A stretch of DNA of 64,000 nucleotides from Squalus acanthias (taxonomy: Eukaryota): the NCBI GenBank assembly GCA_030390025.1, contig CM059431.1, positions 132,186,001-132,250,000 of the forward strand. Reading direction: 5' to 3'. Position numbers and translations under genes: made by a program. The notes below the pieces were generated by a model that was given only the letters and a program-made list of their open reading frames with translations, made no database searches and was not told where the DNA came from. Of this stretch, positions 992 to 53,222 are shown piece by piece (position 1 is the first letter of the stretch; every line of letters starts with the position of its first letter).

Positions 992-1959
992 AATGTTTGA
1001 GAATTCATATCAATTTATTAACTTTGGTTTTACTATAGCTCTTATAAGGGCTAAACATAAAGGTAGCATGAGACAGGAGTCGAATCTAAATGTTCTGTGC
1101 ATGTTATAACACTCCGGGTTGCCTGAGAAGAAACTGTTTTAATATCTAGCCATAAAACGAAATCCCAGAAGTCAGAGTTAATTTCAATACTGACACCAGC
1201 CTCTGACTATAGTGCTAGTTGTTAATCATTTAATCTCTTTGAATAATTTGATATTTAATAATGTATTGTGGAATTCTTATTCTGAGTGAGACTGGTAGTA
1301 TAAATCCCTCGCTGTGAAGGCAATTCGATTTTCTTTGGTGTTGACTGTTGAGTTGGCTTTTAAACATCAATCATTTAGGCAGTCACAAAGCCCAATCTGA
1401 AGTTCCGACTGATTCTGATAGCTAGCATGTGAACCTCCCTAGACTGCGAGGAAAAATGGATGCATAGTTCTCTTTATACCACCAGAGATTTTTTTTTTAT
1501 TCGTTTATGGGATGTGGACGTCGCTGGCAAGGCCAGCATTTATTGCTTATCCCTAATTGCCCTTGAGAAGGTGGTGGTGAGCTGCCTTCTTGAACCGCTG
1601 CAGTCCGTGTGGTGAATAATGCTCCAGGATTTTCTCTCAGGGACTATGAAGGAACGGTGATATACAGGAAACTTTCGTTTATCCGGCATCGACGGGACCG
1701 GCGTGGTGCCGGTTTATCGAAAGTACCGGATAACGGAGAGTTATATCTACCGAGGCTATTTTTAACATAAAAAAATCAAGAAATGTGCAGTATACAGTAT
1801 TTGGGTACTCACCTACAGAATGTTGTGTTAAATGGATAGTGGAAGATGCTTGATTAAGTACAGTACTGCCAGTTGAGGGTAATCCATAACTCTTTAATTA
1901 CTTAACAGTAAAACAAAACTTATAAACGACTGTCTACAGTACTGTAGTTGACTGTACAC

Positions 1960-3732
1960 TTATTCCGAGTCATCTGGTTCATCAGAAATATCCGTATCCA
2001 TGCCAGCTGGGTCATCAGGATCACGCAGTTCCACCGATGCCACAGATTCTTCAGGCACTTCCGCTGCTGCGACTCTTTTGGAAGCTTTCTTAAACATGTT
2101 GCGGATGTCGGTTTGCTTAGTGGACTCTTGCCTTTTCTGTAGAAAGGTGGAATGCAGAATATGGAGTTGCATAACTTCTTGTGCAGAGTAGCAATTCTGC
2201 CTTTCAGCAAATTTGAGGATTGTAGAAAATCCTTCTGCAGCTTTAGCCCAAGAAATCTTCTCTTCTTCAGAAATCTCATCCTCTTCACTTTCCATCTCGC
2301 TTTCCTTTTCTTTCTTTGGATTCAAAACATTCTGAATTATTTCATCATCACTTAGCATATGCACAACACCAACTTCTCTATCTGCATCAACCCACTGCTC
2401 GATATCACTTTCACTGAGGTGACGTAGAGGGTTTGCTGGGCCTGCATTTTTCACCATTCCAGCCATTTCCATTATTGTACTCTTCTTGGGACGAACACTG
2501 AACCCATGAAATTCCTCCTCTGAAGAAGAACCTTCAGCAAACATTACAGAAGGCCACAATTTGCGCCAGGCTTGCCTCAGAGTGTGACCTTTCACCAATT
2601 TCCAGGAACATGAAACATTATAGATGGCATCTTTAATATTGTATTCCTTCTGCAAATCTTGAATATTCTCATCTTGGCTTAGCAGTTTACGTAGGAAGTC
2701 TTTCTTGTAATGACACTTCAGATTTTGGATAACGCCCTGGTCCATGGGTTGGATGAGAGAAGTTACATTTGGTGGCAAATAAATGGTGAAAATATTTCCC
2801 GAAACCAACTGGGATTCATGCGGATGGGCTCTGCAATTATCAAGCAATAAAATGCATTTGCTATCTTCAGGTTTCCCTATTCTGCGGAAATGTTCCTTCA
2901 CAGATGGAACAAAAATATGATGGAACCAATCGGAGAAGATTTCCTTATCCATCCAAGCATTTTTTTGAGCTTTGTACTCAACAGGTAAGTGCCTCACATT
3001 TTTAAATGCACGGGGATTTTTATACTTCCCGATAACAAGAAGTTTAACCCGGTGTGATCCAGCGGCGTTCGCACATGTTAGCACGGTTACACGATCTTTA
3101 TTTTTCTTGTAACCTGAAGCATTAGCCTCACTAGCCCCAGCAAGCGTTGATTCTGGCAAAAACCTCCAAAACAAGCCAGTTTCATCGGCATTGTAGATCT
3201 GTGCTGGCGACAAATCATGTTGCTGCACAATCCGATTCAAATAATCGCAGTATTCTTCTGCGGCGTCGTGATCAGCTGATTTCTTCTCCCCGGAAATATC
3301 GAGTCGTCGTATCCCGTGCCGTAACTTGAAGCACGTTAGCCATCCATCGGAGAAAGCACACTTGTCAGTGAGCTACATCCTTTCGTAGAAATCCTTTGCT
3401 TTCTCGATTAGCATGGGTCCGGAAATTGGAACACCCTCTGAACGCTTAAGAGAAAACCATTCATAAAGCATGGTATCCAGCTCTTCAAGCTTAGGCTTAC
3501 GAAGCGTACGCCGTTTCTCTACACTCTTGCATGTCTCCGAGCTTGAATAAAACTTGAGCAGCTTATCCTTCTGCGATTTGATGTCGTAGATTGTTGACGA
3601 ACCGATTTTGAATTCATTCATAATGTTGATACGCTTCTCTCCCCTTTCAAGTCGTTGGCATATCTCGATTTTCTGTTTTAAAGTTAAGACCACTCTCTTC
3701 CTTTTGCTTGGACCAGCTTTTGGGAATTCCAT
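1960..3732 (-). pseudogene. Tigger/pogo (CENP-B/Jerky-like) transposase, about 590 codons with one in-frame TAG
   Basis: ORFs 3373-3786 and 1960-3240 share a frame, and read-through of TAG 3373-3375 gives [16 protein letters not shown]-terminal HTH region ([25 protein letters not shown]). DDE motifs NADETG, LLLDNC and QPMDQG with DD32D spacing. Confidence 0.93.
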
Positions 3733-3796
3733 AATGCAAGATGGAGGAGATAATTGCCGATGAAGATGGAAAGACACACAGAACAATGGTGGCTAG

Positions 3797-4024
3797 GAAG
3801 AGACTACCAGCAGCGTGGGAGACACACAGTAAAATGGTGTATCAGAAGAGACTACAGTACCAGCAGCGTGGCAGACACACAGCAAAATGGTGTATCAGAA
3901 GAGACTACAGTACCAGCAGCGTGGGAGACACACAGCAAAATGGTGGATCAGAAGAGACTACCAGCATCGTGGGAGACACCCAGCAAAATGGCCGATCAGA
4001 AGAGACTCCAGGCAGCGCGGGAGA
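3797..4024. repeat. 48/53-bp tandem repeat (about 4.5 copies) upstream of the Tigger transposase
   Basis: Units of GAAGAGACTAC[AGTAC]CAGCAGCGTGGGAGACACACAGCAAAATGGTGTATCA starting near 3797, 3845, 3898, 3951 and 3999. Confidence 0.9.
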
Positions 4025-4425
4025 ATCTACTCATGCTACTGCAATGTTTTGGACTTGCGACAGCGCCAGGAGGCCGAGTAGTGGCACTTTTGAAAAGTAC
4101 CCCTGCTGACTAAATCGGCATTCTCGGACTCGGGATCGGCAACATTGCTGGTTATTTGAGAGGAGTTTTCGGAGCACTCGGCGTTCGCGGAGACTCGACT
4201 GCGACTCGGCAACATTGCCGGTTATTTGAGAGGAGTTTTCGGAGGATGATTTTTGCCGGTTAAGCGAGAATTCCGGATATTTGGGTGCCGGATAAACGAA
4301 AGTTTCCTGTATTTCTAAGTCAGGATGGTGTGTAACTTGGAGGGGAACTTGGAGGTAATGGTGTTCCCATGCGCCTGCTGCCCTTCTCCTACTAGGTGGT
4401 AGAGGTCATGGGTTTGGGAGGTGCT

Positions 4426-4640
4426 GGTATGTTTAATTCCCAGGCATTGTCACCCTGCAGCCATGTTTCTGTAATGGCCACAAGATCATACCCATATGTA
4501 GTTATTTGTGCCATTAACTCGTCTATTTTGTTACGAATGCTACGTGCATTCAGATAGAGAACTTTCAAATATGTTTTGTGACACTTAGTTCCTTCTTTTG
4601 CCCTTTTTATTACTTTACCTTTTACTCCATACCTTCTGCC
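4426..4640 (-). mobile_element. CR1 ORF2 endonuclease N-terminal fragment
   Basis: Translates YLNARSIRNKIDEL...YDLVAITETWL, the AP-endonuclease motifs I/II. Confidence 0.8.
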
Positions 4641-5554
4641 CCTGTCAGGCTGTTGCTTGACTAGTCTGTGGGACAGCTCTCCCAATTTTGGCACAAGTCC
4701 CCAGATGTTAGTGAGGAGGACTTTGCAGGGTCGACTGGGCTGGGTGTGCCTTTGTCATGTCCGAAGCCGGTGCCAAGATCGATGTCAGGTCGTCCGTTCG
4801 GTTTTATTCTTATTATTGTTTCTTGTAGCGGTTTGTTGCAACCGAGTGGCTTGCTAGGCCATTTCAGAGTGCAATTAACAGTCAATCACATTGCTGTGTC
4901 TCTGGAGTCACATATAGGCCAGACCAGGTAAGAACAGATTTCCTTCCCTAAAGGACATTAGTGAACCAGATGGGTTTTTACAGACACCAATACTGACACT
5001 AGCTTTTTATTCCAGATTATTTAATTAACAATTTAAATTCCACAGCTGCCGTACAGCAGCCGTGGTGGGATTTGAACTCACGACTCCTGGATTATTAGTC
5101 CAGGCCTCTGGGTTACTAGTCCAGTAACCACTATGTCACCGTTCCCGATTCAGAACCTCAAGTGCTAGTCGCATCAAAGACTAATCAACCTACCAAATGA
5201 GACAACAGACATGAAAATGATTTCCTCTCAGCATTACTGTCATGACATCATAAAAAATGTGGGAAGATTTTTTCTAGGCGGCATTTTGAACAAAAAAGGA
5301 GAATCTCTCCTTCAGCGAAGTGTAACAACTGCTGAGTGCGTACATATCCCAGTAAACATGTTAGTCTTTTAGTGACCATTTAAAAAAAAACTTCTTTTTC
5401 AACAACTGCACTTATTTCCCCTAATTGAAACAATATAACAGAAGATTTCTTCTGTGCCATACATGTATCAAAATCATAAACCCATTGCTTGGCTAGTTCA
5501 ATTGAATTTCTTGAGGAAATCATGAAGAGTGTGTAGATAAAGAAAATGTGGAGG

Positions 5555-25467: not shown

Positions 25468-28400
25468 CATAGAATCATAGAATGGTTAAAGCACGGAAGA
25501 AGTCCATTCGGCCCGTCGAGCCCATGCCGGCTCTCTTCAAGAGCACTTCAGCTAGTCCCACACCCCGCCCTTTCCCCGTAGCCCTGCAAATTATTTTCTT
25601 TCAGGTACTTATCCAACTCCATTTTGAAAGCTGTGATTGAGTCTGCCTCTACCACCCTTTCATGCAGTGCATTCCAGATCCTAACCACTCGCTACATAAA
25701 GAAGTTTTTCTTATGTCGCCTTTGGTTCTTTTGCCAATCACCTTAAATCTGTGTCCTCTGGTTCTTGACCCTTCTGCCAATGGGAACAGTTTCTCTCTAT
25801 CTACTCTGTCCAGACCCCTCATGATTTTGAATACCTCTATCAAATCTCCTCTCGATCTTCTCAGCTCAAAGGAGAACAACCCCAGCTTCTCCAGTCTATC
25901 CACGTAGCTGAAGTCCCTCATCCCTGGAACCATTCTTGTAAATCTTTTCTGCACCCTCTCTAAGGCCTTCACATCCTTCATAAAGTGCGGTGCCCAGAAT
26001 TGGACACAATGCTCCAGTTGAGGCCAAATCAGTGTTTTATACAGGTTCATCATAATTTCCACTCTATACCTCTATTCATGAAGCTCAGGATCCCATAAGC
26101 TTTTTTTACCTGCTTTCTCAACATGCCCTGCCACCTTCAACGATTTGTGCACATATACCCCTAGGTCTCTGTGTTCATGCACCCCCTTTAGGATTGTACC
26201 CTTTAGCTTATATTTCGTCTCCTCATTCTTTCTACCAAAATGTATAACTTCGCATTTTCCTGCGTTAAATTTCATCTGCTACGTGTCCGCCCATTCCGCC
26301 AGTCTGTCCACGTCCTCTTGAAGTCTATCACTATCCTCCTCACTGTTCACTATACTTCCAAGTTTTGTGTCATCTGCAAATTTTGAAATTGTGCCCCTAC
26401 ACCAACATCCAAGTCATTAATATATATCAAGAAAAGCAGTGGTCCTAGAACCGACCCCTGGGGAACACCACTGTATACCTTCCTCCAGTCCAGAAAACAA
26501 CCATTCACCACTCTCTGTTTCCTGTCACTTAGCCAATTTCGTATCCATGCTGCCACTGTCCCTTTTATTCCATGGGCTTCACCTTTGCTGGCAAGCCTAT
26601 TATGTGGCACTTTGTCGAACGCCTTTTGGCAATCCATGTACACCACGTCAACCGCATTGCCCTCATCAACTCTTTCTGTTACCTCAGCAAAAATTCGATC
26701 AAGTTGGTTAAACACGATTTGCCTTTAACAAATCCGTGCTGGCTTTCCTTAATTAATCCACACTTGTCCCAAGTGACAGTTAATTTTGTCCCTGATTATT
26801 GTTTCTAAAAGCTTCCCAACTACCGAGGTTAAACTGACTGGCCTGTAGTTGCTGGGCTTATCTTTACACCCTTTTTTGAACAAGGGTGTAACATTTGCAA
26901 TTCTCCAGTCCTCTGACACCACCCCATTTCTGAGGATGATTGGAAGATTATGGCCAGTACCTCCGCGATTTCTTCCTTCACTTCCCTCAGCGTCCTAGGA
27001 TGCATCCCATCCAGTCCTGGTGACTTATCTACTTTAAGTACAGCCAGCCTTTCTAGTACCTCATCTTTATCAATTTTTATCTCATCCAGTATCTCCTCTA
27101 CCTCCTCCTTCACTGTGTCTATGGGAGCATCTTCTTCCTTGGTGATGACAGATGCAAAGTACTCATTTAGTACCTCAGCCATGCCCTCTGCCTCCATGCA
27201 TAGGTTTCCTTTTTGGTCCCTAATCGGCCCCACCCCTCCTCTTACTACCCGTTTACTATTTATATGCCTATAGAAGACTTTTGGATTACCTTTTATGTTG
27301 GCTGCCATTCTATTCTCACACCCTCTCTTTACCCCTCTTATTTTCTCTTTCACTTATTCTCTGAACTTTCTATATTTAGCCTGATTCTCAGATGTATTCT
27401 CGACCTGACATCTGTCATACGTGCTCTTTTTCTGATTCATCTTACTATCTATCTCTTTCGTCATCCAGGGAACTCTGACTTTAGTTGCCCTACCTTTCCC
27501 CCTCGTGGGAATGTACCTCGACTATGCCCAAACTATTTCCTCTTTCAAGGCAGCCCATTATTCCACTACAGTTTTGCCTGTCAATCTTTGATTACAATTT
27601 ACCTGGGCTAGATCTGTTCTCATCCCACTGAAATTGGCCTTCCTCCAATTAAGTATTTTTACTCTAGATTACTCCCTGTCCTTTTCCATAGCTAATCTGA
27701 ACCTTATGATACTATGATCACTGTTCCCTAAATGTTCACCTACTGACACTTGCTCCACTTGACCTACCTCATTCCCCCGAACCAGATCCAGCAATGCTTC
27801 CTTCCTCATTGGGCCGGAAACATGCTGATCAAGAAAGTTCTCCTGAACACACTTCAGAAATTCTTCCCCCTCCCTGCCCTTTACATTATTACTATCCCAG
27901 TTTATATTAGGATAGTTGTAGTCCCCCATTATTACTACTGTATAGTTCTTGCATCTCTGTAATTTCTCTGCAAATTTGTGCTTCCATATCTTTCCCACTA
28001 GTTGGTGGCCTATAGAATACACCTAGTAGTGTAATGGCACCTCTATTATTTCTTAACGCTAGCCATATACATTCTGTCCTTGACCCCTCCATGACATCCT
28101 CTCTCTCCAGCACTGTAACATTCTCCTTAACCAATACTGCCACACCACCTCCTATCTTTCCTTCCCTATCTTTCCTGAACACCCTATATCCAGGAATATT
28201 TAATACCCAATCCTGCCCTTTTTTGAGCCAGGTCTCCGTCATTGCCACGACATCATATTCCCATGTGGCTATTTGTTCCTGCAGCTCAACAAGCTTGTTT
28301 ACTATGCATCGTGCATTCACATACATACACTGTAAACCTATCTTAGACCATCCTGTGTTCTCTCTTAGTCTGACCCCACCTAATACCTTACTATTTCTTA

Positions 28401-28689: not shown

Positions 28690-29440
28690 TGGTGTGTTGC
28701 TATCTCCAACAAGAGAGAGTCTAACCACCTCCCCTTGACATTCAATGCATTACCATCACTTAATCCCCCACCATCAACATCCTGGAGTCAACAATGGCCA
28801 AAAACTTAACTGGACCATCACATAAATACTGTGGCTACAAGAGCAGGTCAGAGGTTGGGTATTCTGTGGCGAGTGACTCACCTCCTAATTCCCCAAAGCC
28901 TTTTCACCATCTACAAGGCGCAAGTCAGGAGTGTGATGGAATACTCTCCACTTGCCTGGATGAGTGCAGCTCCAACAACATTCAAGACGCTCGACACCAT
29001 CCAGGACAAAGCAGCCCGCTTGATTGGCACCCCATCCACCACCTTAAACATTCACTCCCTCCACCACCGGCGTTCCGTGGCTGCAGTGTGTACCATCTAC
29101 AAGATGCACTGCAGCAACTCGCCAAGGCTTCTTCGACAGCACCTCCCAAACCCACGACCTCTACCACCTAGAAGGACAAGGGCAGCAGACACATGGGAAC
29201 ACCACCACCTCCAAGTTCCCCTCCAAGTCACACACCATCCTGACTTGGAAATAAATTGCTGTTCCTTCATCATCACTGGGCCAGAGTCCTGGAACTCCCT
29301 CCCTAACAGCCCTGTGGGAGTACCTTCACCATACGGACTGCAGCGGTTCAAGAAGGCGGCTCACCACCACCTTCTCAAGGGCAATTAGAGATGGGCAATA
29401 AATGCTGCCCACATCCCAAGAATGAATATTAAAAAAAAAT
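28690..29440 (+). mobile_element. LINE family B, 5'-truncated 3' fragment
   Basis: ORF 28831-29388 is nearly identical to 37419-37976 (...HHHLLKGN). A-rich tail at 29431-29440. Confidence 0.88.
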
Positions 29441-37118: not shown

Positions 37119-37356
37119 GGCCTGGTGCTGAAGGCCTATCCACTCCCGACAACCAGTCAGCCTCTCAATCTGGCTGGCTGTGGCCGGGAAACACAAACAA
37201 AAAATGCTGAGGGAAACCTGTTCTTCCAGGGTTTCCCAACCGCAAAACTTCCGCCCCGCCTCCCCCCCTCCCCCCGCCCCCCCCCCCCCCCCCTCCCGCA
37301 GCCCAGCTCCCTCCCCGCCTTCCCGTAAATATCAGGGCCAGTGAGTATCATGAGTT

Positions 37357-40300
37357 GTTTTTTTATTCGTACATGAGATGTGGGCATCGCTGACAAGGCC
37401 AGCATTTATTGCCCGTCCCTAATTGCCCTTGAGAAGGTGGTGGTGAACCGCCATCTTGAACTGCAGCAGTCCGTGTGGTGAAGGTACTCCCACAGTGCTG
37501 TTAGGGAGGGAGTTCCAGGATTTTGACCCAGCGATGATGAAGGATCGGCGATATACTTCTAAGTCAGGATGGTGTGTGACTTGGAGGGGAACTTGGAGGT
37601 GGTGGTGTTCCCATGCGCCTGCTGCCCTTGTCCTTCTAGGTGGAAGAGGTCGCGGTTTTGGGAGGTGCTGCCGAAGAAGCCTTGGCGAGTTGCTGCAATG
37701 CATCTTGTAGATGGTACACACTGCAGCCACGGTACGCCGGTGGTGGAGGGAGTGAATGTTTAAGGTGGTGGATGGGGTGCCAATCAAGCGGGCTGCTTTG
37801 TCCTGGATGGTGTCGAGCTTCTTGAGTGTTGTTGGAGATGCACTCATCCAGGCAAGTGGAGAGTATTCCATCACACTCCTGACTTGTGCCTTGTAGATGG
37901 TGGAAAGGCTTTGGGGAGTCAGGAGATGAGACACTCGCTGCAGAATACCTAGCCTCTGACCTGCTCTTGTTGCCACAGTATTTATGTGGCTGGTCCAGTT
38001 AAGTTTCTGGTCAATGGTGACCCCCAGAATGTTGATGGTGGGGGATTCGGTGATGGTAATACCGTTGAATGTCGGGGGAGGTGGTTAGACTTTCGCTTGT
38101 TGGAGATAGTCATTGCCTGGCACTTCTGTGGCACGAATGTTACCTGCCACTTATCAGCCCAAGCCTAAACGTCATCAGGGTCTTGTTGCATGCGGGCATG
38201 GGCTGCTTCATTATCTGAGGAGTTGTGAATGGCGCTGAACACTGTGCAGTCATCAGCGAACATCCCCATTTCTGACCTTATGTTGGAGGGAAGGTCATTG
38301 ATGAAGCAGCTGAAGATGGTTGGGCCTAGGATACTGCCCTGAGGAACCCCTGCAGCAATGTCCTGGGCTGTGATGATTGACCTTCAATCACCACAACCAT
38401 CTTCCTTTGTGCTAGGTATGACTCCAGCCAGTGGAACGTTTTCCCCCCGATTCCCATTGACTTCAGTTTTACTAGGGCTCCTTGATGCCACACTCAATCA
38501 AATGCTGCCTTGATGTCAAGGGCAGTCACTCTCACCTCACCTCTGGAATTCAGCTCCTTTGTCCATGTTTGGACCAAGGCTGTAATGAGGGCGGGAGCCG
38601 AGTGGTCTTGGCGGAACCCAAACTGGGCAGCTGTGAGCAGGTTATTGGTGAGTAAGTGCCACTTGATAGCACTGTCAATGATACCTTCCATCACTTTGCT
38701 GATGATTGAGAGTAGACTGATGGGGCGGTAATTGGCCGGGTTTGATTTGTCCTGCTTTTTGTGGACAGGACATACCTGGGCAGTTTTCCACATTGTCGGA
38801 TAGATGCCAGTGTTGTAGCTGTACTGGAGCAGCTTGGCTAGAGGCGTGGCTAGTTCTGGAGCACAAGTCTTCAGCACGATAGTCGGGATGTTGTTGGGGC
38901 CCATAGCCTTTGCTGTATCCAGTGCGCTCAGCCGTTTCTTGATATCACGTGGAGTGAATGGAATTGGCTGAAGACTGGCTTCTGTGATGTTGGGGACTTT
39001 AGGAGTAGGCCGATATGGATCATCCACTCGGCACTTCTGGCTGAAGATGGTTGCAAACGCTTCAGCCTTGTCTTTTGCACTCACATGCTGGGCTCCACCA
39101 TCATTGAGGATGGGGATAATCATGGAGCCTCCTCCTCCCGTTAGTTGTTTAATGGTCCACCACCATTCATGACTGGATGTGGGAGGACTGCAGAGCTTTG
39201 ATCTGATCCGTTGATTGTGGGATCGCTTAGCCCTGTCTGTAGCATGCTGCTTCTGCTTTTTAGCATGCATGTAGTCCTGTGATGCAGCTTCCCCAGGTTG
39301 GCACCTTATTTTTAGGAACGCCTGGTGCTGCTCCTGGCATGCTCTTCTGCACTCCTTATTGAACCAGGGTTGGTCCCCTGGCTTGATGGTAATGGCAGAG
39401 TGAGGGATATGCTGGGCCATGAGGTTACAGATTGTGGTGGAATACAGTTCTGCTGCTGCTGATGGCCCACAGCACCTCATGGATGCCCAGTTTTGAGCTG
39501 CTAGATCTGTTCTGAATCTATCCCATTTAGCATGGTTGTAGTGCCACACAACACGATGGAGGGTGTCCTCAGTGTGAAGACAGGACTTCATCTCCACAAT
39601 GACTGTGCAGTTGTCACTGCTACCAATACTGTCATGGACAGATGCATCTGCGACAGGTAGATCGGTGAGGACGAGGTCAAATAGATTTTTCCCCTTGTGT
39701 TGGTTCTCTCACCACCTGTCGCAGGTCCAGACTGGCAGTTATGTCCTTCAGGACTCGGCCTGCTCAGTCAGTAGTGGTGCTACCGAGCCACTCTTGGTGA
39801 TGGACATTGAAGTCCCCCACCCAGAGTGCACTCTGTGCCCTTGCTACTCTCAGTGCTTCTTCCAAGTGGTGTTCAACATGGAGGAGTACTGATGCATCAG
39901 CTGAGCGAGGGCGGTAGGTGGTAATCAGCAGGAGGTTTCCTTGCCCATGCTTGACCTGAAGCCATGAGAATCATGGGGTCCGGAGTCAATGTTGAGAACT
40001 CCCAGGGCCACTCCTTCCCGACTGTATACCACTGTGCCGCCACCCCTGGTGGGTCTGTCCTGCCAGGACATACCCAGAGATGGTGATGGAGGAGATTTTG
40101 TGAGTATGATTATGTCAGGCTGTTGCTTGACTAGTCTGTGGGACAGCTCTCCCAATTTTGGCACAAGTCCCCAGATGTTGGAGGACTTTACAGGGTCGAC
40201 TGGGCTGGGTGTGCCATTGCTGTGTCCGTAGCCGGTGCCGAGGTCAATGCCGGGTGGTCTGTCCGGTTTCATTCTTTTTCGTAGTAATTTGTTACAACTG

Positions 40301-40590
40301 AGTAGCTTGCTAGGCCATTTCTGTGGGTCTGGAGTCACATATGGGCCAGACCAGGTAAGGACGGCAGATTTCCTTCCTGAAAGGACATTAGTGATCCAGA
40401 TGGGCTTTTACGACAATCCGATAGTTTCATGGTCACCATTACTGATACTAGTAATTATTCCAGATTTATTTAATCAACTGAATTTAAATTCCCCAGCTGC
40501 CGTGGTGGGATTTGAACTCATGTCTCTGGATCATTAGTCCAGGCATCTGGATTACTAGCCCAGTGACATTACCACTATGCTACCGTTCCC
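37357..40590 (-). mobile_element. tRNA-headed LINE (family B), apparently full length (about 3.2 kb), EN-RT frameshifted
   Basis: Head at 40590-40500. EN start NIWGLVPKLGEL...PDIIILT. RT ORF 38494-39597 (NYRPISLLS, QFGFR, LDIKAAFD). C-terminus 37419-37976. A-rich tail at about 37357. Confidence 0.9.
40500..40590 (-). promoter_or_regulatory. tRNA-derived RNA polymerase III internal promoter (A and B boxes) at the LINE 5' end
   Basis: Minus strand GGGAACGG TAGCATAGTGG (A box, 40582-40572) ... GAGTTCAAATCCC (B box, 40519-40507). The same head occurs at 5060-5146. Confidence 0.75.
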
Positions 40591-42492
40591 TCAAACAGCT
40601 TGTCATGAGTGAGACATGACAAGCCTGATTAATCATGGTAATTTCCTGACCTGCACTTTTAAGTGATGTTAATTCTCCGCAAAAAATAAGATCAGTGGTT
40701 TTATTGACTTTTCTTATTTGTTAATAGAAAAATAAAATGATTTTTAGCCTGTTCTTTAAGCTGCTGCAGAAGGAAGAAAGATAAATGAGTTATGGAAAAA
40801 ACATGAAATAGTATTTTAGATCTCTCACCATTTGCACTTTGCTGATGATGAATAGTCTCATTTCATCTCATTAATTCTTTGAGCCAACCAGATAAATGCA
40901 AAAAGATTACCTTACCATCCCAAGCTGGTTAACGTGTCAAGATAACAAACAGGGGAATGATTCCCATTTTATCGATTTCTGCCAATGGTGATGTGCCAAA
41001 TTGTGTCTCACAGAAGCATAATTTTCTGAGTATTATGCTACACATAGGCACAGTGGGCCTGATTCTATTTTATTGGCACTGCCTCATGTGTGATTTGTGG
41101 TAGCAGCACATGCAAAAATGAAATAAAGGAGCCTGTGCTTTATTCTGAACAATGTATTGATTTCCCTCCTGGTTTTGGTTGTCGCTCGCTCTTTAGGTCC
41201 TGCCTTTATACTATGTACAGTTTGTTAACCAATTGGACAAACAGGGATTCCTCTCCTAAATGTCTGCTAACAAAAACTGGGAGGTGCATGAAAGCAACAT
41301 GCATTGATTTGCAATTTAACCTGCCCCCTCAATGAAGAAGCAAGGAGACCTCAGCACCTTCTTCTGAAACTATTTCCCCTTCCATCTTCAGAATTTCAAT
41401 CTAGGCTTTTTCTGATTGTTGTAGCAAAGGACATGAACCCACTTTCAAACAGTGATACCGTGCCTTTGAAATTGGTGAGAAGCTATTGATTATAACATGG
41501 ACTTTACATGTCATTGAGAGTGAAGAGTGATTAATACCTGGGATAGCCTTCTGTGCAGACTGTCGAATCATTCAGGAGACAGTGTCACATTTCAAGATTT
41601 TATGACCATTTTTCCACAGAAATGATTTGGGGGGAAAAAACATCACTTTTGAATGTTGAGTTTTTAAGCCAAAGTATCTTGACACAAGTTTTTTTTTTAA
41701 AAAGAAGGCACTGAGATGTAAAATAGTTAAAATTATGCCCAAGCTAAGCTTTGATGTGAAATCTCTAGTCCTGGATACTCGATAGCGACGGCAGGTCTGA
41801 CAGACCTTCCCTTCTGGTTGTGAATAGAGCATGAAAAAAAACAGAAGCAAGGGCAGTCAGTCAGGTCCAGCAAAGACTGCAAAGTCAAACAGAAAGTCAT
41901 CATGGCAAGCTTTGGCCAAGCTCAGAAGGACAATGCACAAAAATAGGAGTTATTTTGTTTAAGGCAAGCAAGATGCCATCTGATGTGGGGAAGCTTGTCA
42001 TGTTAATTATTTTTATATTATTACACAGAGACAGATTGTGCAGATTGAACTAAGTAAATATGTATGTTCACTTGCTCTGAGATAAAACAGCTTAACGATT
42101 CATATCTGGCCTCATCGAACCAAATCTCAGTCTACCCTCGAAAAGATTGAAGAAGCATGATTGCAAAAGACACAAATATCCAGTTCAGGTGACAAAGGGG
42201 TCCTATTGTTACACCCTGGGTTACGCTATTGTATAGTTAAATATTGGGTAATACAGATGCATCCCTAATCATAAGACACTTAGATCACTTACGGGAGGAA
42301 TTACTAGCAATGCTGTACCTGAAAGAATAACTAAGTTAAAACCCTAAACTATAATTGGCAGTTACATATCGTAGGGAACAGTAAATTTCCATGGAAGGAT
42401 GAGCTAGGTTGGCCAGTGGAGTCACTCATCTGTACTTATCTTTGTGAACAATTATGTAGTATGCTATAACTGTCTGGAATGGCAATTTGATT

Positions 42493-45749: not shown

Positions 45750-46778
45750 AACATGTGAAACAGGCTACAAGATAGATGCTATATTTAGTCATCCAGGAGA
45801 ACTGATTTGTAACCTGGAAATGCATGAATACTTCGGGTAATCAGTGTAAAGTAATAAAGGCAAAGGCCGAAAATATCAATATTGCTGTGTAAGAGCAAGT
45901 GAGGATTAAGTGGTAAACTGACAATAGCCTGGATTCAGCAAGGCTGTGCTCCTGATACAGCACTTCGCTTGACAGAGGTGTGAATCAGAGAATTGGGCAC
46001 GGAGGCCAGCAGACCTGCTTCATGGTGTTGCTGATTTTCATGGGGTAGATTTTAATCACTGGAAAATCGATGCCAGTGTAAATTGCATGCACTGACTTCT
46101 ACATCTGATTCTGCGTGAAGCAAAGCTATATGTGGGGAATGTAGCCTCACTAAATTTACTTGTAGCCATGGCAGAAAAGAAGGAACATGGCGTGACCCAG
46201 GCCACAGTCGTTGAATGAGGTCAAAAAAATAACCTAATGGTTAAGAAAAATTTGCCGAGAATGTTTTTGAGCGTTCTCCCAATCGTCTGCTGTAACTTTA
46301 GCAGGAGATCGGTGAAAACCCCATTAATGTCCCATAATTTGCTGTCAAACTAATGGCGAAGCAAATAGCGCTCGCCATTATTTATGCGCAAATGCCACAG
46401 CAACTTCAGGCGAGGGGCAGATTTGAAACAATAGATTTAGAAATCCAAAAGTTGCTATCCGAGATGCGCCGCTCCACCATTAGTTTTGCGAAAATGGCAT
46501 CTCGCTGCCTGCCTCACCATTGAAATATATTGAGCAGCTTGAATTGGCTGCATTTACACGGTAGAAACAAACTAAAGTTAGAGCTGATCTGAAGTGACAC
46601 AAGGAGCCTGTTTTGGAGCCATTTAAGGCTCATGCATATTTATTTAAACCTGGATTAGCTGTCAGAGATTCTTTTGATGATGTGCTAAGTGTTAATCACT
46701 GCCAATGATCCCCTCTGGCACCGAAAATTAACTATTACAAGTGTGGAATCTCATTTCTTCAGGTTTTAATTGTTGTTG

Positions 46779-47013
46779 TGTGGCGGATCGCCACCTAAAC
46801 GGGCGCAATCCACTTTTCCGTCCGTGGACAATAAATCAGGCACCTTGCCTTTAAGGCGCATGCTGCCTTTAAGGCATGAAAAAAGGAGTGGGCGTGGCCT
46901 CAGGGTTTTGCAGAGAAATGTTAGCAGCCATTTTACCAGAGGAGATGTAATAAAAAGCCATGTGTTCCACATATTGACTCGGCCTCAATTCGTGCTTCGC
47001 GGCAGCCACAACA
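46779..47013 (+). repeat. 5' LTR
   Basis: Direct repeat of 50886-51120. Contains AATAAA. Confidence 0.95.
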
Positions 47014-47014
47014 T

Positions 47015-47028
47015 TGGTGACCCCGACG
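47015..47028 (+). promoter_or_regulatory. Primer binding site complementary to tRNA-Trp 3' end
   Basis: TGGTGACCCCGACG lies one base after the 5' LTR and matches the complement of the eukaryotic tRNA-Trp 3' end (...CGUCGGGGUCACCA), recalled from memory. Confidence 0.85.
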
Positions 47029-47053
47029 CTCAGAACGTATTCCGAGCACTGCA

Positions 47054-50000
47054 ATGGCGGACACGAACGCAGTTTCCGTGAAACTGCCGGAGTTTTGGGA
47101 AAACCAGCCCGAAGCCTGGTTCCTCCAAGCCGAGTCACGATTCCGGCTGCGACAAATCACCACAGATGGGACGAAGTACGACTACCTCGTCACATCACTC
47201 GGTAGCTCCACAGTTACGAAGGTCTGGACAGCGCTGCAGAACCCACCAGAGGAGGGCAAGTATGCACATCTTAAGGCCGCGCTCCTTAAAAAATTTACGG
47301 CCTCGACATACCAGCGAAACTGCCACCTCCTCGACCTTACAGGCCTCGGTGATGCCTCACCGTCAGACCTCCTCTCCCACATGCTCTCCCTCACCGACGA
47401 GAGCCCACCCGGATCCCTCTTCCGCACGCTGTTCATCCGCTAGCTACCTCTCAGCATCCGCCCAGCGATCGTGGCGTCTGGCCTTATGGACCTGGAAGCC
47501 CTGGCCGATGAGGCCGACAAGCTGCTGTCCGCTCACTCCAGCCGTGACGTCACTCCGGACCTGGCAGCCACTGACTGGGCGCGCCCCTCACCGGCCACCA
47601 CGCGGCCACAAGGCCCAGCCACCGGGCTCACGGGGCCTTCGCGCCCCACTAACCCGGGCCACTGTTACTACCACGCACGGTTCGGCACCAGGGCACAGCG
47701 GTGCACACCTCCCTGCTCTTTCAAGTCCGCCCCCGTACCAGCCCCCGCGATGGCCGTGGGCCACGCGGGCTCCCTACTGTACGTCACAGATGACAAAACC
47801 GGCCGCCGGTTCCTGTGCGACACTGGAGCTCAGCACAGCATCATCCCGGCCTTCGCCCTTGACATCGGAAAGGGCAAACGAGGACCGGCGCTGGCTGCTG
47901 CTAACAGCTCGGACATCGGACATACAGCACCCGTACAGTCACCCTCGACCTCGCTGGTCGCCGCTACCGATGGGAGTTCATCACTGCCAAGGTGCTCTCC
48001 CCTCTCATCGGTGCAGATTTCCTGTGCGGCCACGGCCTACTGGTAGACATCCCTCGACACCGCCTCGTGGACATGAACACCATGTCCCCCATCCTGGGCG
48101 CCATGGCCCCCCATCAACCCGCCGACATGGCGTCACAGTGCCACGCCCGGGCCACGGATGACTACTCGGCACTCCTGGCCGAATTTCCGGCCCTTACCAA
48201 TCCGACCTTCTCCGTGGAGGCCGCCAAACACGGGGTGGAGCACTTCATCCCCACCACAGGCCCCCCAGTGTATGCCCACGCCCGCAGGCTGGACCCGGCC
48301 AAACTGGAGATCGCGCGGACCGAGTTTGCCACCATGGAACAGCTCGGCATCATCCGCCGCTCCAACAGTCCCTGGGCCTCCCCACTCCACATCGCCCCCA
48401 AACCAGGCGGGGGTTGGCGCCCCTGCGGGGATTACCGCCGCCTCAACGACGCCACCACCCCTGATCGGTACCCCGTGCCGCACATCCAGGACTTCTCGGC
48501 TAGACTGGCCGGCCGCTCAGTCTTTTCCAAGGTCGACCTGGTGCGCGGCTACCACCAAGTCCCCGTCCACCCCGCGGACGTCCCCAAGACGGCCGTAATC
48601 ACCCCCTTCGGCCTTTTCGAGTTCCTGCGGATGCCCTTCAGCCTCAAAAACGCGACCCAGGCATTCCAACGGCTCATGGACTCGGTCCTTCGGGACCTGA
48701 AGTTCCTGTTCGTCTACCTGGACGACATCCTGGTAGCCAGTTCCTCCAAGCAGGAACACCTCGAACATCTTCGCATCCTGTTTGGGCGCCTCAGCGACCA
48801 CGGGCTCATCCTCAGCCCAGCCAAATGCCAGTTCGGCCTGGACAAGATCGACTTCCTCGGCCACCACATCACCCATGCTGGGGCCATTCCCCTGCCCACC
48901 AAGGTGCAGGCCGTCCAACAATTTCCCCGCCCCACCACCATCAAAGGCCTCCAGGAGTTCCTCGGGATGGTGAATTTCTACAACCGCTTCATCCCCAAAG
49001 CGGCGTCCCTCATGAGGCCCCTGTATGAAGCCCTCCGGGGCAGGAGCGGCAAGATGGCGGTCGAATGGACGGCAGACGCGTCAGCCGCCTTCGACTCCAC
49101 CAAGACCGCGCTCGCCAACGCCACCCTGCTCACGCACCCACGGCCCAATGCCAGGGTAGCGCTCACCACGGACGCCTCCGACCACGCGGTCGGCGCCGTG
49201 TATGAGCAGTGGGTCGACGGCGCCTGGCAACCACTTGCCTTCTTCAGCCGCCAACTATGCCCCCCGGATGTCAAGTACAGCACCTTCAACCGCGAGCTCC
49301 TCGCGCTGTTCCTGGCGGTCCGCCATTTTCGGTTTTTGCTGGAGGGCCACCCCTTCACTGCGTTTGTCGACCACAAACCCCTGACATTCGCAATGGCAAA
49401 GACAACCGACCCCTCGTCCGCCAGGCAGCAGCGCCAGCTCGCGGCAGTGTCCGAGTTCACCACGGACATCCAACACGTCTCCGGCCGAGACAATGTGGTA
49501 GCCGACTGCCTCTCCCGCCCCGCCATCCTCGCCGCACACCTGGCAGTCGACTACGCTCAACTCGCAGCAGACCAGATCACCAACCCTGATCTGCTCTCCG
49601 CACCTACCAACCTACCAGGGCTACGCCTGGCCGACGTCGCCTGTGGCCCGACCGCAGTCACGGTCAAGTGCGACATATCCCTATGTCAACCTCGGCCCGT
49701 CATCCCAGCGTCCTGGCGCCGCCGGGTATTCGACATTCTCCACAACCTCTCCCACCCCGGCGCCCGCACATCCATCAAATTGGTAGCCAACCGCTTTGTC
49801 TGGCGCAGCCTTCGCAAGGATGTGCGTACTTGGGCCAACTCCTGCCTAGCCTGCCAAAAGGCCAAGGTGCAGCAACACACGAAAGCACCCCTCGAGGAGT
49901 TTACCGTCCCTTCGCGTAGATTCAACCACATCCACGTGGACATCTTTGGGCCCCTGCCACCATCGCAAGGCCACACGCACTTGCTGACGATCGTTCACCG

Positions 50001-50865
50001 CACCACGCGCTGGCCCGAGGCAATTCCACTGACCTCTACCACCACCGCCGACATCGCCAGAGCCTTCGTCAGCACCTGGGTCACACGGTTCGGTGTCCCC
50101 TCCGACATGACGTCGGACAGAGGTCCGCAATTTACCTCTGAACTCTGGACCGCCGTCACACGCAATCTCGGGGTGACCATTCACCGTACCACAGCGTACC
50201 ACCCCCAAGCCAACGGACTGTGTGAGCGGTCCCACAGATCCTTGAAGGCATCTCTTCGAGCCAGCCTCCAGGACGGCGCCTGGACCGACCGACTCCCGTG
50301 GGTCCTCCTCCGCCTGCGCACCGCGGTTAAAGAAGACCTCCACACATCGGCAGCAGAGCTCGTGTACGGTCAGCTGCTGCGCGTACCCGGCGAGTTCCTG
50401 CCCACCGCCACGACACCCTGGTCAGCCGACCAGCAACGCCACGACTTCGCCTCACCGGCGCTACAGTTCGCTCCGGTGCCCATTGCCTGACACGGCGAAT
50501 CCACCTCACACGTCCCACTAAGCCTGCACCAGGCACGGTTCGTTTTCGTCCGGCACGACGCCCACCGCGGACCCCTTCAACCCCCGTATGACGGGCCCTA
50601 CAAGGTGCTACAGGCTGGGGACAAATTTTTCACCCTGCAAGTGGGCGACAGGACCGAAAAAGTGTCGGTTGACCGACTCAAGCCAGCACACTCGGAGCCC
50701 GGTGAGCAGGTCCCTGTAGCTCGTCCACCTCCACGCGGCCGACCTGCCCTCAAGCCAGTTCACCCGGCTGCTCCACGCCCGGCCGTTCCACGTCCACCGG
50801 CGTCCTACAAGAGCCGCTCCGGCCGGCCCATCAGACCGCCGCACCGACTCGTCCACACCTCCTAA
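47054..50865 (+). pseudogene. gag-pol polyprotein with two nonsense codons and one frameshift
   Basis: Gag VKLPEFW...AWFLQAE, TAG at 47441, CHCC knuckle CYYHARFGTRAQRCTPPC, protease FLCDTGA, frameshift near 47915, RT YLDD, RNase H TDAS, integrase H-H-C-C and SDRGPQF, TGA at 50488, C-terminal PY.GPY and VSVDRLKP. Confidence 0.93.
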
Positions 50866-50885
50866 GTGGATTCTAGGGGGAGCTG

Positions 50886-51120
50886 TGTGGCGGATCGCCA
50901 CCTAAACGGGCGCAATCCACTTTTCCGTCCGTGGACAATAAATCGGGCACCTTGCCTTTAAGGCGCATGCTGCCTTTAAGGCATGAAAAAATGAGTGGGC
51001 GTGGCCTCAGGGTTTTGCAGAGAAATGTTAGCAGCCATTTTACCAGAGGAGATGTAATAAAAAGCCATGTGTTCCACATATTGACTCGGCCTCAATTCGT
51101 GCTTCGCGGCAGCCACAACA
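50886..51120 (+). repeat. 3' LTR
   Basis: Direct repeat of 46779-47013, followed by the GTTG TSD. Confidence 0.95.
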
Positions 51121-51635
51121 GTTGGATATTTTAAAAATGTAAAATTTAATTTTTTTTTTAACTTTTCCTTTCTGTCTTTTTTTCTCTTTTTCTTAATCCA
51201 ATCTTTCTTACCCTCTCGTTATTTCTCTTTCTGTACCTGATTTGACATTGAATTCACCCACTCTAATCTACACTTCCTTCTCAGTCCTTGAGCTGTTAAT
51301 TTCACAGTCCGTCAATCTGATTGGTTAAGGAGATACACAGTTACTTGTCCTGTTCACTCAGGTCCCAGATGTGCGGTTTCTCTCACTGTGACGTTATCAA
51401 CTTGTATTTTCAGCAACTTGCAGTGCAAAATATCATCATGATTAAACGAGGCAAGAGCAAATGTAACTAACTGCGAGTGCCATTCGTTGCCCTGCTACAG
51501 CAAATTATGGGCCATTTTGTCTATCGGGAGTTTCCACCAATCTAATGCCAAAGTAATCACGGCCGATCAAGTGGGTATGTTTAGTGAGGCAGTGCGCCAG
51601 TGGCAGCCAGTAGCAGAGAGCTTCAAAAAACTTAA

Positions 51636-52962
51636 CAGAGAGAGTAATGAGAGATATACAAACCTTACCTGAGAGAGTTACAAGTGATATACACACCTTA
51701 CCCAAGAGAGACATGAGTGATAGGCACACCTTACCCGAGAGAGACATGAGTAATATACACACCTTACCCAAGAGAGACATGAGTGATATACACACCTTAC
51801 CCGAGAGAGACATGAGTGATATACACACCTTACCCGAGAGAGTCATGAGTGATATACACACCTTACCCGAGAGAGACATGAGTGATATACACACCTTACC
51901 CGAGAGAGACATGAGTGATATACACACCTTACCCGAGAGAGTCATGAGTGATATACACACCTTACCCGAGAGAGACATGAGTGATATACACACCTTACCC
52001 GAGAGAGACATGAGTGATATACACACCTTACCCGAGAGAGACATGAGTGATATACACACCTTACCCGAGAGAGTCATGAGTGATATACACACCTTACCCG
52101 AGAGAGACATGAGTGATATACACACCTTACCCGAGAGAGACATGAGTGATATACACACCTTACCCGAGAGAGACATGAGTGATATACACACCTTACCCGA
52201 GAGAGACATGAGTGATATACACACCTTACCCGAGAGAGTCATGAGTAATATACAAAGTTTACCTGAGAGAGACATGAGTGATATACAAGGTTTACCCGAG
52301 AGAGTCATGAGTAATATACAAAGTTTACCTGAGAGAGACATGAGTGATATACAAAGTTTACCCGAGAGAGTCATGAGTAATATACAAAGTTTACCTGAGA
52401 GAGACATGAGTGATATACAAAGTTTACCCGAGAGAGTCATGAGTATATACAAAGTTTACCTGAGAGAGACATGAGTGATATACAAAGTTTACCCGAGAGA
52501 GTCATGAGTAATATACAAAGTTTACCTGAGAGAGACATGAGTGATATACAAAGTTTACCCGACAGAGTCATGAGTGATATACAAAGTTTACCTGAGAGAG
52601 ACATGAGTGATATACAAAGTTTACCTGAGAGAGACATGAGTGATATACAAAGTTTACCCGAGAGAGTCATGAGTGATATACAAAGTTTACCTGAGAGAGA
52701 TATGAGTGATATACACACCTTACCCGAGAGAGACATGAGTGATATACAAAGTTTACCTGAGAGAGATATGAGTGATATACACACCTTACCCGAGAGAGAC
52801 ATGAGTGATATACAAAGTTTACCTGAGAGAGATATGAGTGATATACACACCTTACCCGAGAGAGACATGTGTGATATACAAAGTTTACCTGAGAGAGATA
52901 TGAGTGATATACACACCTTACCCGAGAGAGACATGTGTGATATACAAAGTTTACCTGAGAGA
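51636..52962. repeat. 33-bp minisatellite, about 40 copies
   Basis: Unit GAGAGAG(A/T)CATGAGT(G/A)ATATACA(CACC/AAGT)TTACC(C/T) in uninterrupted tandem copies. Confidence 0.97.
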
Positions 52963-52969
52963 ATTACAA

Positions 52970-53222
52970 TAGGACCACAGCACGTGAGTACAAAAGTCAA
53001 GGCTAAAGCGTTCGCAACCATCTTCAGCCAGAAGTGCCAAATGGATGATCTATCTCGGTCTCCTCCTGATGTCCCCACTGGCACAGATGCCAGTCTTCAG
53101 CCAATTCGATTCACTCCATGTGATATCAAGAAATGGCTGAGTGCACTGGATACAGCAAAGGCTATGGGCCCCGACAACATCCCGATTGTAGTGCTGAAGA
53201 CTTGTGCTCTAGAATTAGCTGC
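52970..53222 (+). mobile_element. LINE family B internal fragment
   Basis: QHVSTKVKAKAFATIFSQKC...AKAMGPDNIP...LKTCALELA matches ORF 38494-39597. Confidence 0.8.

Follow-up and report, generated by a model that had tools for sequence, protein, structure and literature searches.

Long interspersed elements (LINEs) are, by the standard division, messages of RNA polymerase II (Pol II), whereas short interspersed elements (SINEs) are short, non-coding RNAs of RNA polymerase III (Pol III). A 64,000-nucleotide stretch of Squalus acanthias DNA (assembly GCA_030390025.1, contig CM059431.1, positions 132,186,001 to 132,250,000), here called the window, holds an element that raises the question of whether a retrotransposon can stand on both sides of this division. 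The element, copy A, lies on the minus strand from 40590 to 37357 and comprises, over about 3.2 kb, a head, a body, a linker, one endonuclease-reverse transcriptase frame, a 3' untranslated region (UTR) and an A tail (Table 1). Judged by sequence, it is a broken copy of an elasmobranch Zenon LINE, and its 5' head is tRNA-derived, with A and B boxes.

The initial annotation had described an A/B-box head at the minus-strand start, an endonuclease about 400 bp further on and an endonuclease-reverse transcriptase region reaching an A-rich tail, some 3.2 kb in total, and all of this was borne out. From 40590 the minus strand reads GGGAACGG-TAGCATAGTGG, with the A-box-like motif at 40582-40572 and the B-box-like motif GTTCAAATC at 40517-40509. 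An anticodon-arm-like hairpin of the head is present twice, in tandem. The Rfam tRNA match is weak in copy A (40583-40504, 21 bits, E 0.7) and reaches 23.7 bits in copy B, a second copy in the window (E 0.019 in a 701-nt search); both scores lie below the gathering score of 29, and the acceptor stem is badly paired in the alignments. ARAGORN called no tRNA in the 64-kb window, as expected for a derived head. Folding of head, body and tail does not rise above shuffles (seven folds, z -0.05 to -1.5; heads -0.05 and -1.0), and the centroid structure of the copy B head contains tRNA-like arms. The head may resemble tRNA-Leu.

Downstream of the head, similarity to full-length endonuclease-reverse transcriptase proteins sets in at 40179, 411 nt past the first base, and continues to about 37431 (blastx), covering positions 4-934 of the relative P0004. 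Pfam identifies Exo_endo_phos_2 (PF14529, E 2.8e-8) and RVT_1 (PF00078, E 1.4e-16 and 4e-14). At 3.2 kb and with its own endonuclease-reverse transcriptase frame, copy A is neither short nor non-coding, as a SINE would be. No ORF1 (first open reading frame, ORF) was found in copy A, the 411 nt before the endonuclease holding only closed AUG frames of at most 34 codons. The main frame is broken by frameshifts near 40100, 39969, 39691, 38364 and 38074 and by three in-frame stops, and copy A is therefore dead; the initial annotation's "autonomous retroelement" can apply to the family only. The ORF ends at 37419 and is followed by about 60 nt and then AATAAAAAAA. The 3' end carries two AATAAA signals, of which the ORF is free, and the hairpin of the 3' UTR does not fold above shuffles (z -1.2). 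Copies A, B and C have A tails that are poly-A rather than microsatellite, and T-rich loose ends (plus strand) at 37358/37377 were seen in three contig runs.

The head is not peculiar to copy A. The window holds three further copies of the element (B, C and D), and copies A and B share their first base; their alignment extends past the beginning of the endonuclease (5146-4643 of copy B; blastn 75%, E 1e-110, 534 columns including gaps). The same head-endonuclease junction had been noticed before in this second copy; copy B moreover proves to be a head-to-tail copy, from 5146 to 1489, once a CR1 fragment and a DNA transposon are set aside. No flush target-site duplication was found around copy A or copy B. 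In copy A an 8-nt match, ACTCATGA, lies 12 nt ahead of the head and again 1 nt past the tail, which two random 25-mers would show with a chance of about 0.5%; in copy B there is no match at all.

The Zenon assignment is based on the 5' match to the SquAca_Zenon-1 consensus (3314 letters), which starts with the copy A head: 97 of the first 100 nt are equal, with three differences, by eye (Stuart et al., 2026; PMC13343379). In that work, Zenon consensus sequences were extended from reverse transcriptase seeds and curated by hand; Zenon was reported only from elasmobranchs, coelacanth and hagfish, with sockeye salmon also sampled, and it universally lacks ORF1. The elements from five elasmobranchs are more than 84% identical. 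Like copy A, the elasmobranch families (SquAca_Zenon-1/2/3, CarCar_, RhiTyp_, ScyCan_ and HypSab_Zenon-1) have a single apurinic endonuclease-reverse transcriptase frame, a length of about 3.2-3.3 kb, a poly-A tail and no ORF1. The lack of an evident ORF1, stressed by the initial annotation, is thus real in copy A, but ORF1-less LINE bodies are already known for Zenon and are not novel. Zenon is abundant in sharks and rays. In Table S3 of the same source, six of the seven families from elasmobranchs have denominators between 59 and 2313, which we take to be near-full-length copies, and each family has 0 to 3 intact ORFs (one entry of the table is corrupt).

We compared by eye the first 400 letters of the seven elasmobranch rows (three from Squalus and one each from Carcharodon, Rhincodon, Scyliorhinus and the ray Hypanus). 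In all seven, from five species, an A/B-box head opens the row, and the body and linker that follow are shared as well. The spacer diverges, but the A and B boxes are retained; the B box is GGTTCGAATCC in three sharks and is one letter shorter in the ray row. The head was not seen in the first 400 letters of the three other Zenon rows (two hagfish, one coelacanth). Read data agree: in run X3, a loose end at 40181 leads on into this linker (58 records, agreement 0.84; among 19 loose ends listed of more than 10,000). Because all seven consensus rows open with the head and reads extend beyond the endonuclease start into that linker, the head is, on these comparisons, the true 5' end of the family, fixed across sharks and rays, and not a chance neighbour. 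The fusion was propagated, as had been proposed from two copies.

Neither feature of the family appears to have been remarked on in the literature searched, be it the SINE head or the terminator-free coding strand described below. The words "tRNA", "promoter" and "polymerase" have no match in the main text of Stuart et al. (PMC13343379), nor has "tRNA" in the searchable text of its supplement or in the preprint 10.64898/2026.01.13.699120, and we found no mention there of T-run depletion or SINE-like forms. No account of a tRNA-headed coding LINE was found in a search that left aside Repbase, Dfam, SINEBase, the SlmI/RSg-1 papers and preprint supplements.

Comparison with more distant relatives suggests, from their 5' sequences, that the head is a derived gain. 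Among the best 120 of 172 matches, full-length relatives are single ORFs, mostly of 900-1050 aa and mostly on 3-5 kb contigs, with a best identity of 41% to the 404-aa query; the named members of two relative clusters are one sponge and one shrimp. Fragments at 57-84% identity lie inside predicted shark proteins. The reverse transcriptase of the element is 34% identical to that of the window's CR1 and up to 49% identical to those of single-ORF relatives. In a quick reverse transcriptase tree (59 of 60 rows, without a named Zenon reference), the window's CR1 belongs to a starred set from which the element is excluded, the element's own exact placement being unstarred. In 21 relative loci fetched by their endonuclease motif, an A-box match was found in none of 17 upstream regions and a lone B-box-like match in three of the 17; Rfam found no tRNA in the 19 relatives scanned. 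ARAGORN called nothing in any of the 21 loci, which is uninformative because it misses the copy A head too. The two closest relatives with intact 5' regions, L003 and L008, have in common a short 5' region that is of a different type.

Some further observations concern these relatives. L008 (oriented 451-745) and L003 (oriented 366-588) both appear to begin 220-290 nt ahead of the endonuclease, at a common G-rich motif that is not tRNA-like. We found no support for a body that would be a 5' part common to the invertebrate relatives (heads or tail against the 21 loci, best blastn E 0.29). Scans of viral contigs gave no matches, and in the ESM Atlas all matching clusters were without a name. At three loci (L019, L020 and L021), Zenon-like eukaryotic LINE sequence occurs within metagenome-assembled genomes of bacteria, three in number, and probably reflects contamination by the host.

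What would such a head do on a coding element? Pol III terminates at runs of at least four T. The sense strand of copy A (3226 nt) contains no TTTT, as against 4.5 expected from base shuffles (P 0.005), and has 8 TTT runs (21.9 expected) and 2 near-terminators, that is, four T in five nt (13.3 expected). The ORF alone gives 0 against 3.6, 6 against 18.0 and 2 against 10.6, respectively. The depletion is specific to T: on the sense strand, pyrimidine tracts, C-runs and splice-donor motifs show none. The TTT ratio of the element is 0.37; each of the 19 control elements lies higher, at 0.76-1.51, and L008, a headless relative, has 1.01. No TTTT-free strand in the window is longer than 37248-40680, which is the element itself, and none of 494 other overlapping strands of 3226 nt is free of TTTT. 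Two of the eight TTT runs are private to copy A, and the window's five further pieces of the family contain 3 TTT runs where about 13 are expected. Of 932 majority differences between reads and copy A, 40 were listed; eight of these add a T to the sense strand, none creating a run of three, and two remove one.

Given the tRNA-like head and a coding strand without T-runs, we think it fairly probable that a Zenon LINE acquired a Pol III promoter, and we predict end-to-end transcription by Pol III, in the manner of a giant coding SINE. An ancestral headless Zenon would have exchanged its 5' UTR for a tRNA-derived module, supplied by a template switch with a tRNA or with an older SINE, either before the split of sharks and rays or later, with subsequent spread between both. 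Copies free of Pol III terminators would then have been favoured, so that T-runs were purged from the ORF. The A and B boxes would recruit Pol III, which would read through the terminator-free ORF and on into flanking DNA as far as the first T-run (37247 for copy A), as happens with Alu RNA. The RNA would be translated without a normal cap, and the endonuclease-reverse transcriptase protein would copy it from the 3' tail by target-primed reverse transcription, leaving mostly 5'-truncated copies. Internal deletions would yield ready-made SINEs that keep promoter and tail. The entire conjunction, an autonomous coding retrotransposon with a 3.3-kb Pol III mRNA from a captured tRNA promoter, an ORF purged of terminators, conservation across sharks and rays and one-step birth of SINEs, we would place just above an even chance.

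The last step of this model bears on the initial annotation's proposal that a SINE could arise by internal deletion. Contig depth, which is not copy number, is higher in the deepest head/body bin than in the endonuclease-start bin (about 2.6-fold in run X3, 2.5-fold in X8 and 12-fold in X15), with another head bin in X8 slightly below the endonuclease-start bin. A raw-read run, X23, had 147 reads, none over endonuclease or linker, and was not used. From the tail towards the endonuclease, depth falls as for a 5'-truncating LINE. Three body-to-tail joints, from three runs, skip about 2.8 kb (37430/40322, 37445/40296 and 37482/40279; three of 15 joints listed of 4499). The excess of heads and the head-to-tail joints fit SINE-like deletion derivatives, and the several breakpoints fit repeated internal deletion, by analogy with the origin of Persaeus from lepidopteran Zenon. 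Head-to-tail deletion forms are thus found in the read data as proposed; they may reflect a SINE arising from the LINE or a LINE taking the 5' part of an existing SINE.

Several points weigh against transcription by Pol III. The RNAs of this polymerase are normally short and uncapped. The T-run statistics come from one copy and fragments of the same family, and several statistics were tried. TTTT is present in one of the five other family pieces in the window. With dinucleotides or trinucleotides kept, the absence of TTTT is not significant (P 0.12 and P 0.53), because TT itself is depleted (odds 0.73, compared with 0.97 in L008). A codon-level null gave P 0.054, and we do not rely on it, as it is badly calibrated and flagged five of 10 controls. 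Use of xTT/xTC codons equals that of other T/C third positions (Fisher p 1). As to transcripts, run X15 consists of contigs and is guessed to be RNA, and each body-to-tail joint is carried by one or two contigs with a short side of 21-30 letters. The headless verdict on the invertebrate relatives is weak, since some loci may be truncated, ARAGORN is blind to the copy A head and the sister position is poorly supported. Non-LTR elements are held to use Pol II, with the length of Pol III products limited by processivity (Kojima, 2024; PMC10886601).

Translation is the weak step of the Pol III reading. No in-frame AUG was seen ahead of the endonuclease in copy B or in the ray consensus. Relative to the endonuclease, the conserved AUG at 40272 falls in another frame in the ray consensus (by eye) and, as ATA, in copy B; in copy A only a 5-nt deletion brings it into frame. 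As a separate observation, an AUG-initiated short frame (MKPD..., 40272-40140, minus strand) was seen by eye in six of the seven elasmobranch 5' ends. It overlaps the endonuclease start in another frame, and species differences looked mostly third-position; it could be a vestigial upstream ORF or a pointer to a frameshift start.

The most serious alternative, which we consider unlikely without dismissing it, is that the head is fixed but serves a Pol II transcript, as a SINE-derived 5' UTR acting as a Pol II promoter or as a structure that defines the 5' end or helps translation. SINE-like deletion forms that exchange sequence with the LINE would then keep the A and B boxes, and the greater depth of head bins than of the endonuclease start would indeed place many heads in non-coding forms. 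A cap would supply the translation that a 2.8-kb ORF requires, the two AATAAA signals stand at the 3' end and not in the ORF, and characterised non-LTR elements are all described as transcribed by Pol II or co-transcribed (PMC10886601 and PMC5786205). This account, however, leaves the T-run depletion inside the ORF unexplained, as the SINE forms have no ORF and the headless L008 is not depleted.

We regard it as quite improbable that the tRNA-like head is instead a processing signal, at which RNase P or a similar activity frees a precise 5' end from host read-through transcripts. The exact first base common to copies and the tRNA-like arms in the centroid structure of the copy B head would suit such a role, but the heads do not fold above shuffles, their acceptor stems pair badly, and no T-run depletion would be predicted. 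Moreover, 3' trimming of a true tRNA fold would sever the head from the element RNA and so remove it. There are precedents in the self-cleaving 5' ends of six LINE clades, with ribozymes like that of hepatitis delta virus in R2, RTE and Ingi (PMC5786205). An independent SINE inserted ahead of a truncated LINE, the real LINE having a longer 5' end and ORF1, is barely credible: the missing flush target-site duplications and a dip of depth in the linker bin (where copy A has deletions) would fit, but the multi-species consensus refutes it, the same junction occurring in two window copies and all seven consensus sequences, the head of copy A having no A tail of its own before the endonuclease, and Zenon being reported to be universally without ORF1 (PMC13343379).

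Table 1. Features of the Zenon element and its copies in the window (positions in the 64-kb stretch).
Feature	Position	Strand	Basis
tRNA-derived head with A-box-like and B-box-like motifs; 5' end of the element	40500..40590	-	motifs, weak Rfam tRNA match, start of copy B
Non-coding body, about 210 nt, kept in all elasmobranch Zenon consensus 5' ends and also in short SINE-like forms	40290..40499	-	
Linker into endonuclease, holding the conserved AUG at 40272	40180..40289	-	
Single decayed ORF, apurinic endonuclease and reverse transcriptase of Zenon type, sense strand without TTTT	37419..40179	-	
Short 3' UTR (about 60 nt) with predicted hairpin, two AATAAA and A tail	37357..37418	-	
First TTTT past the tail, in flanking DNA; predicted Pol III stop for copy A	37244..37247	-	
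Copy B: head, body, linker and endonuclease start	4643..5146	-	
CR1 endonuclease fragment (216 nt) in place of the middle of copy B	4427..4642	-	51% identity to window 28195-28371 by tblastx (E 2.6e-15)
Copy B, 3' ORF piece, equals 37670-37554 of copy A	4310..4426	-	
DNA transposon inserted at a TA within copy B; its terminal inverted repeats match	1666..4309	-	
Copy B: ORF end, 3' UTR and A tail	1489..1665	-	
Copy C: 5'-truncated 3' end, 92% identical	28700..29410	+	
Copy D: internal ORF fragment, 88% identical	52972..53219	+	

The surroundings of the copies deserve a brief description. The CR1 fragment within copy B has no match to the Zenon element; it lies in the same orientation as copy B, and a template switch between two LINE RNAs is possible. 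The DNA transposon in copy B is flanked by a TA duplication and has a 470-aa open frame at 1960-3372; it is probably of the pogo/Tigger type. At 51522-52970, tandem repeats of a 33-nt unit, with open frames on both strands, adjoin the mid-ORF Zenon fragment of copy D. A Gypsy-like long terminal repeat retrotransposon at 46777-51120, which served as a control, has 237-nt terminal repeats that are 99% identical and an 861-aa open pol-like frame, and is therefore probably a recent insertion.

A SINE head on a LINE, at the level of a family and across sharks and rays, blurs the division between the two classes, and many shark "SINE" and "LINE" annotations would be pieces of one element. If Pol III does make the RNA, Zenon would provide a natural Pol III mRNA of several kilobases, and both the length limit of productive Pol III transcripts and the translation of an uncapped one would become directly testable.

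The initial annotation had likened head and body to the salmonid SlmI and RSg-1, a likeness that we, too, consider possible; no salmonid name occurs among the named protein matches of the element, most matches being unnamed. By description, SlmI/RSg-1 of salmonids, SacSINE1 (a Deu-SINE) and HE1/HER1 of sharks are tRNA-headed SINEs whose tail is also that of a CR1-group LINE. For SlmI, a tRNA-Leu origin and the partner RSg-1 are listed (PMC3747384). An identity of the head with SacSINE1 was dropped on comparison of descriptions, since the tail of SacSINE1 is tied to L2-2_CM and not to Zenon (Luchetti, 2017; PMC5499810). In Zenon and Persaeus of Lepidoptera (PMC6740152), too, a short element arose from Zenon's own 5' and 3' ends by internal deletion. 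Persaeus, however, lacks both homology to tRNA and a promoter for Pol III, whereas in sharks the shared 5' end is a tRNA head and the deletion product is a SINE. In bipartite LINE-derived SINEs (Bov-B/Bov-A/Bov-tA and those derived from RTE and Vingi), the body corresponds to the 5' part of the partner LINE and the tail to its 3' part; in the model of Kojima (2018; PMC5786205), restricted to RTE and Vingi, the head was added later to a non-coding deletion product and the LINE is transcribed by Pol II. Shark Zenon differs in that the head sits on the coding LINE itself, so that deletion of the middle of the headed LINE would give birth to a SINE in one step, unlike the published addition of a head.

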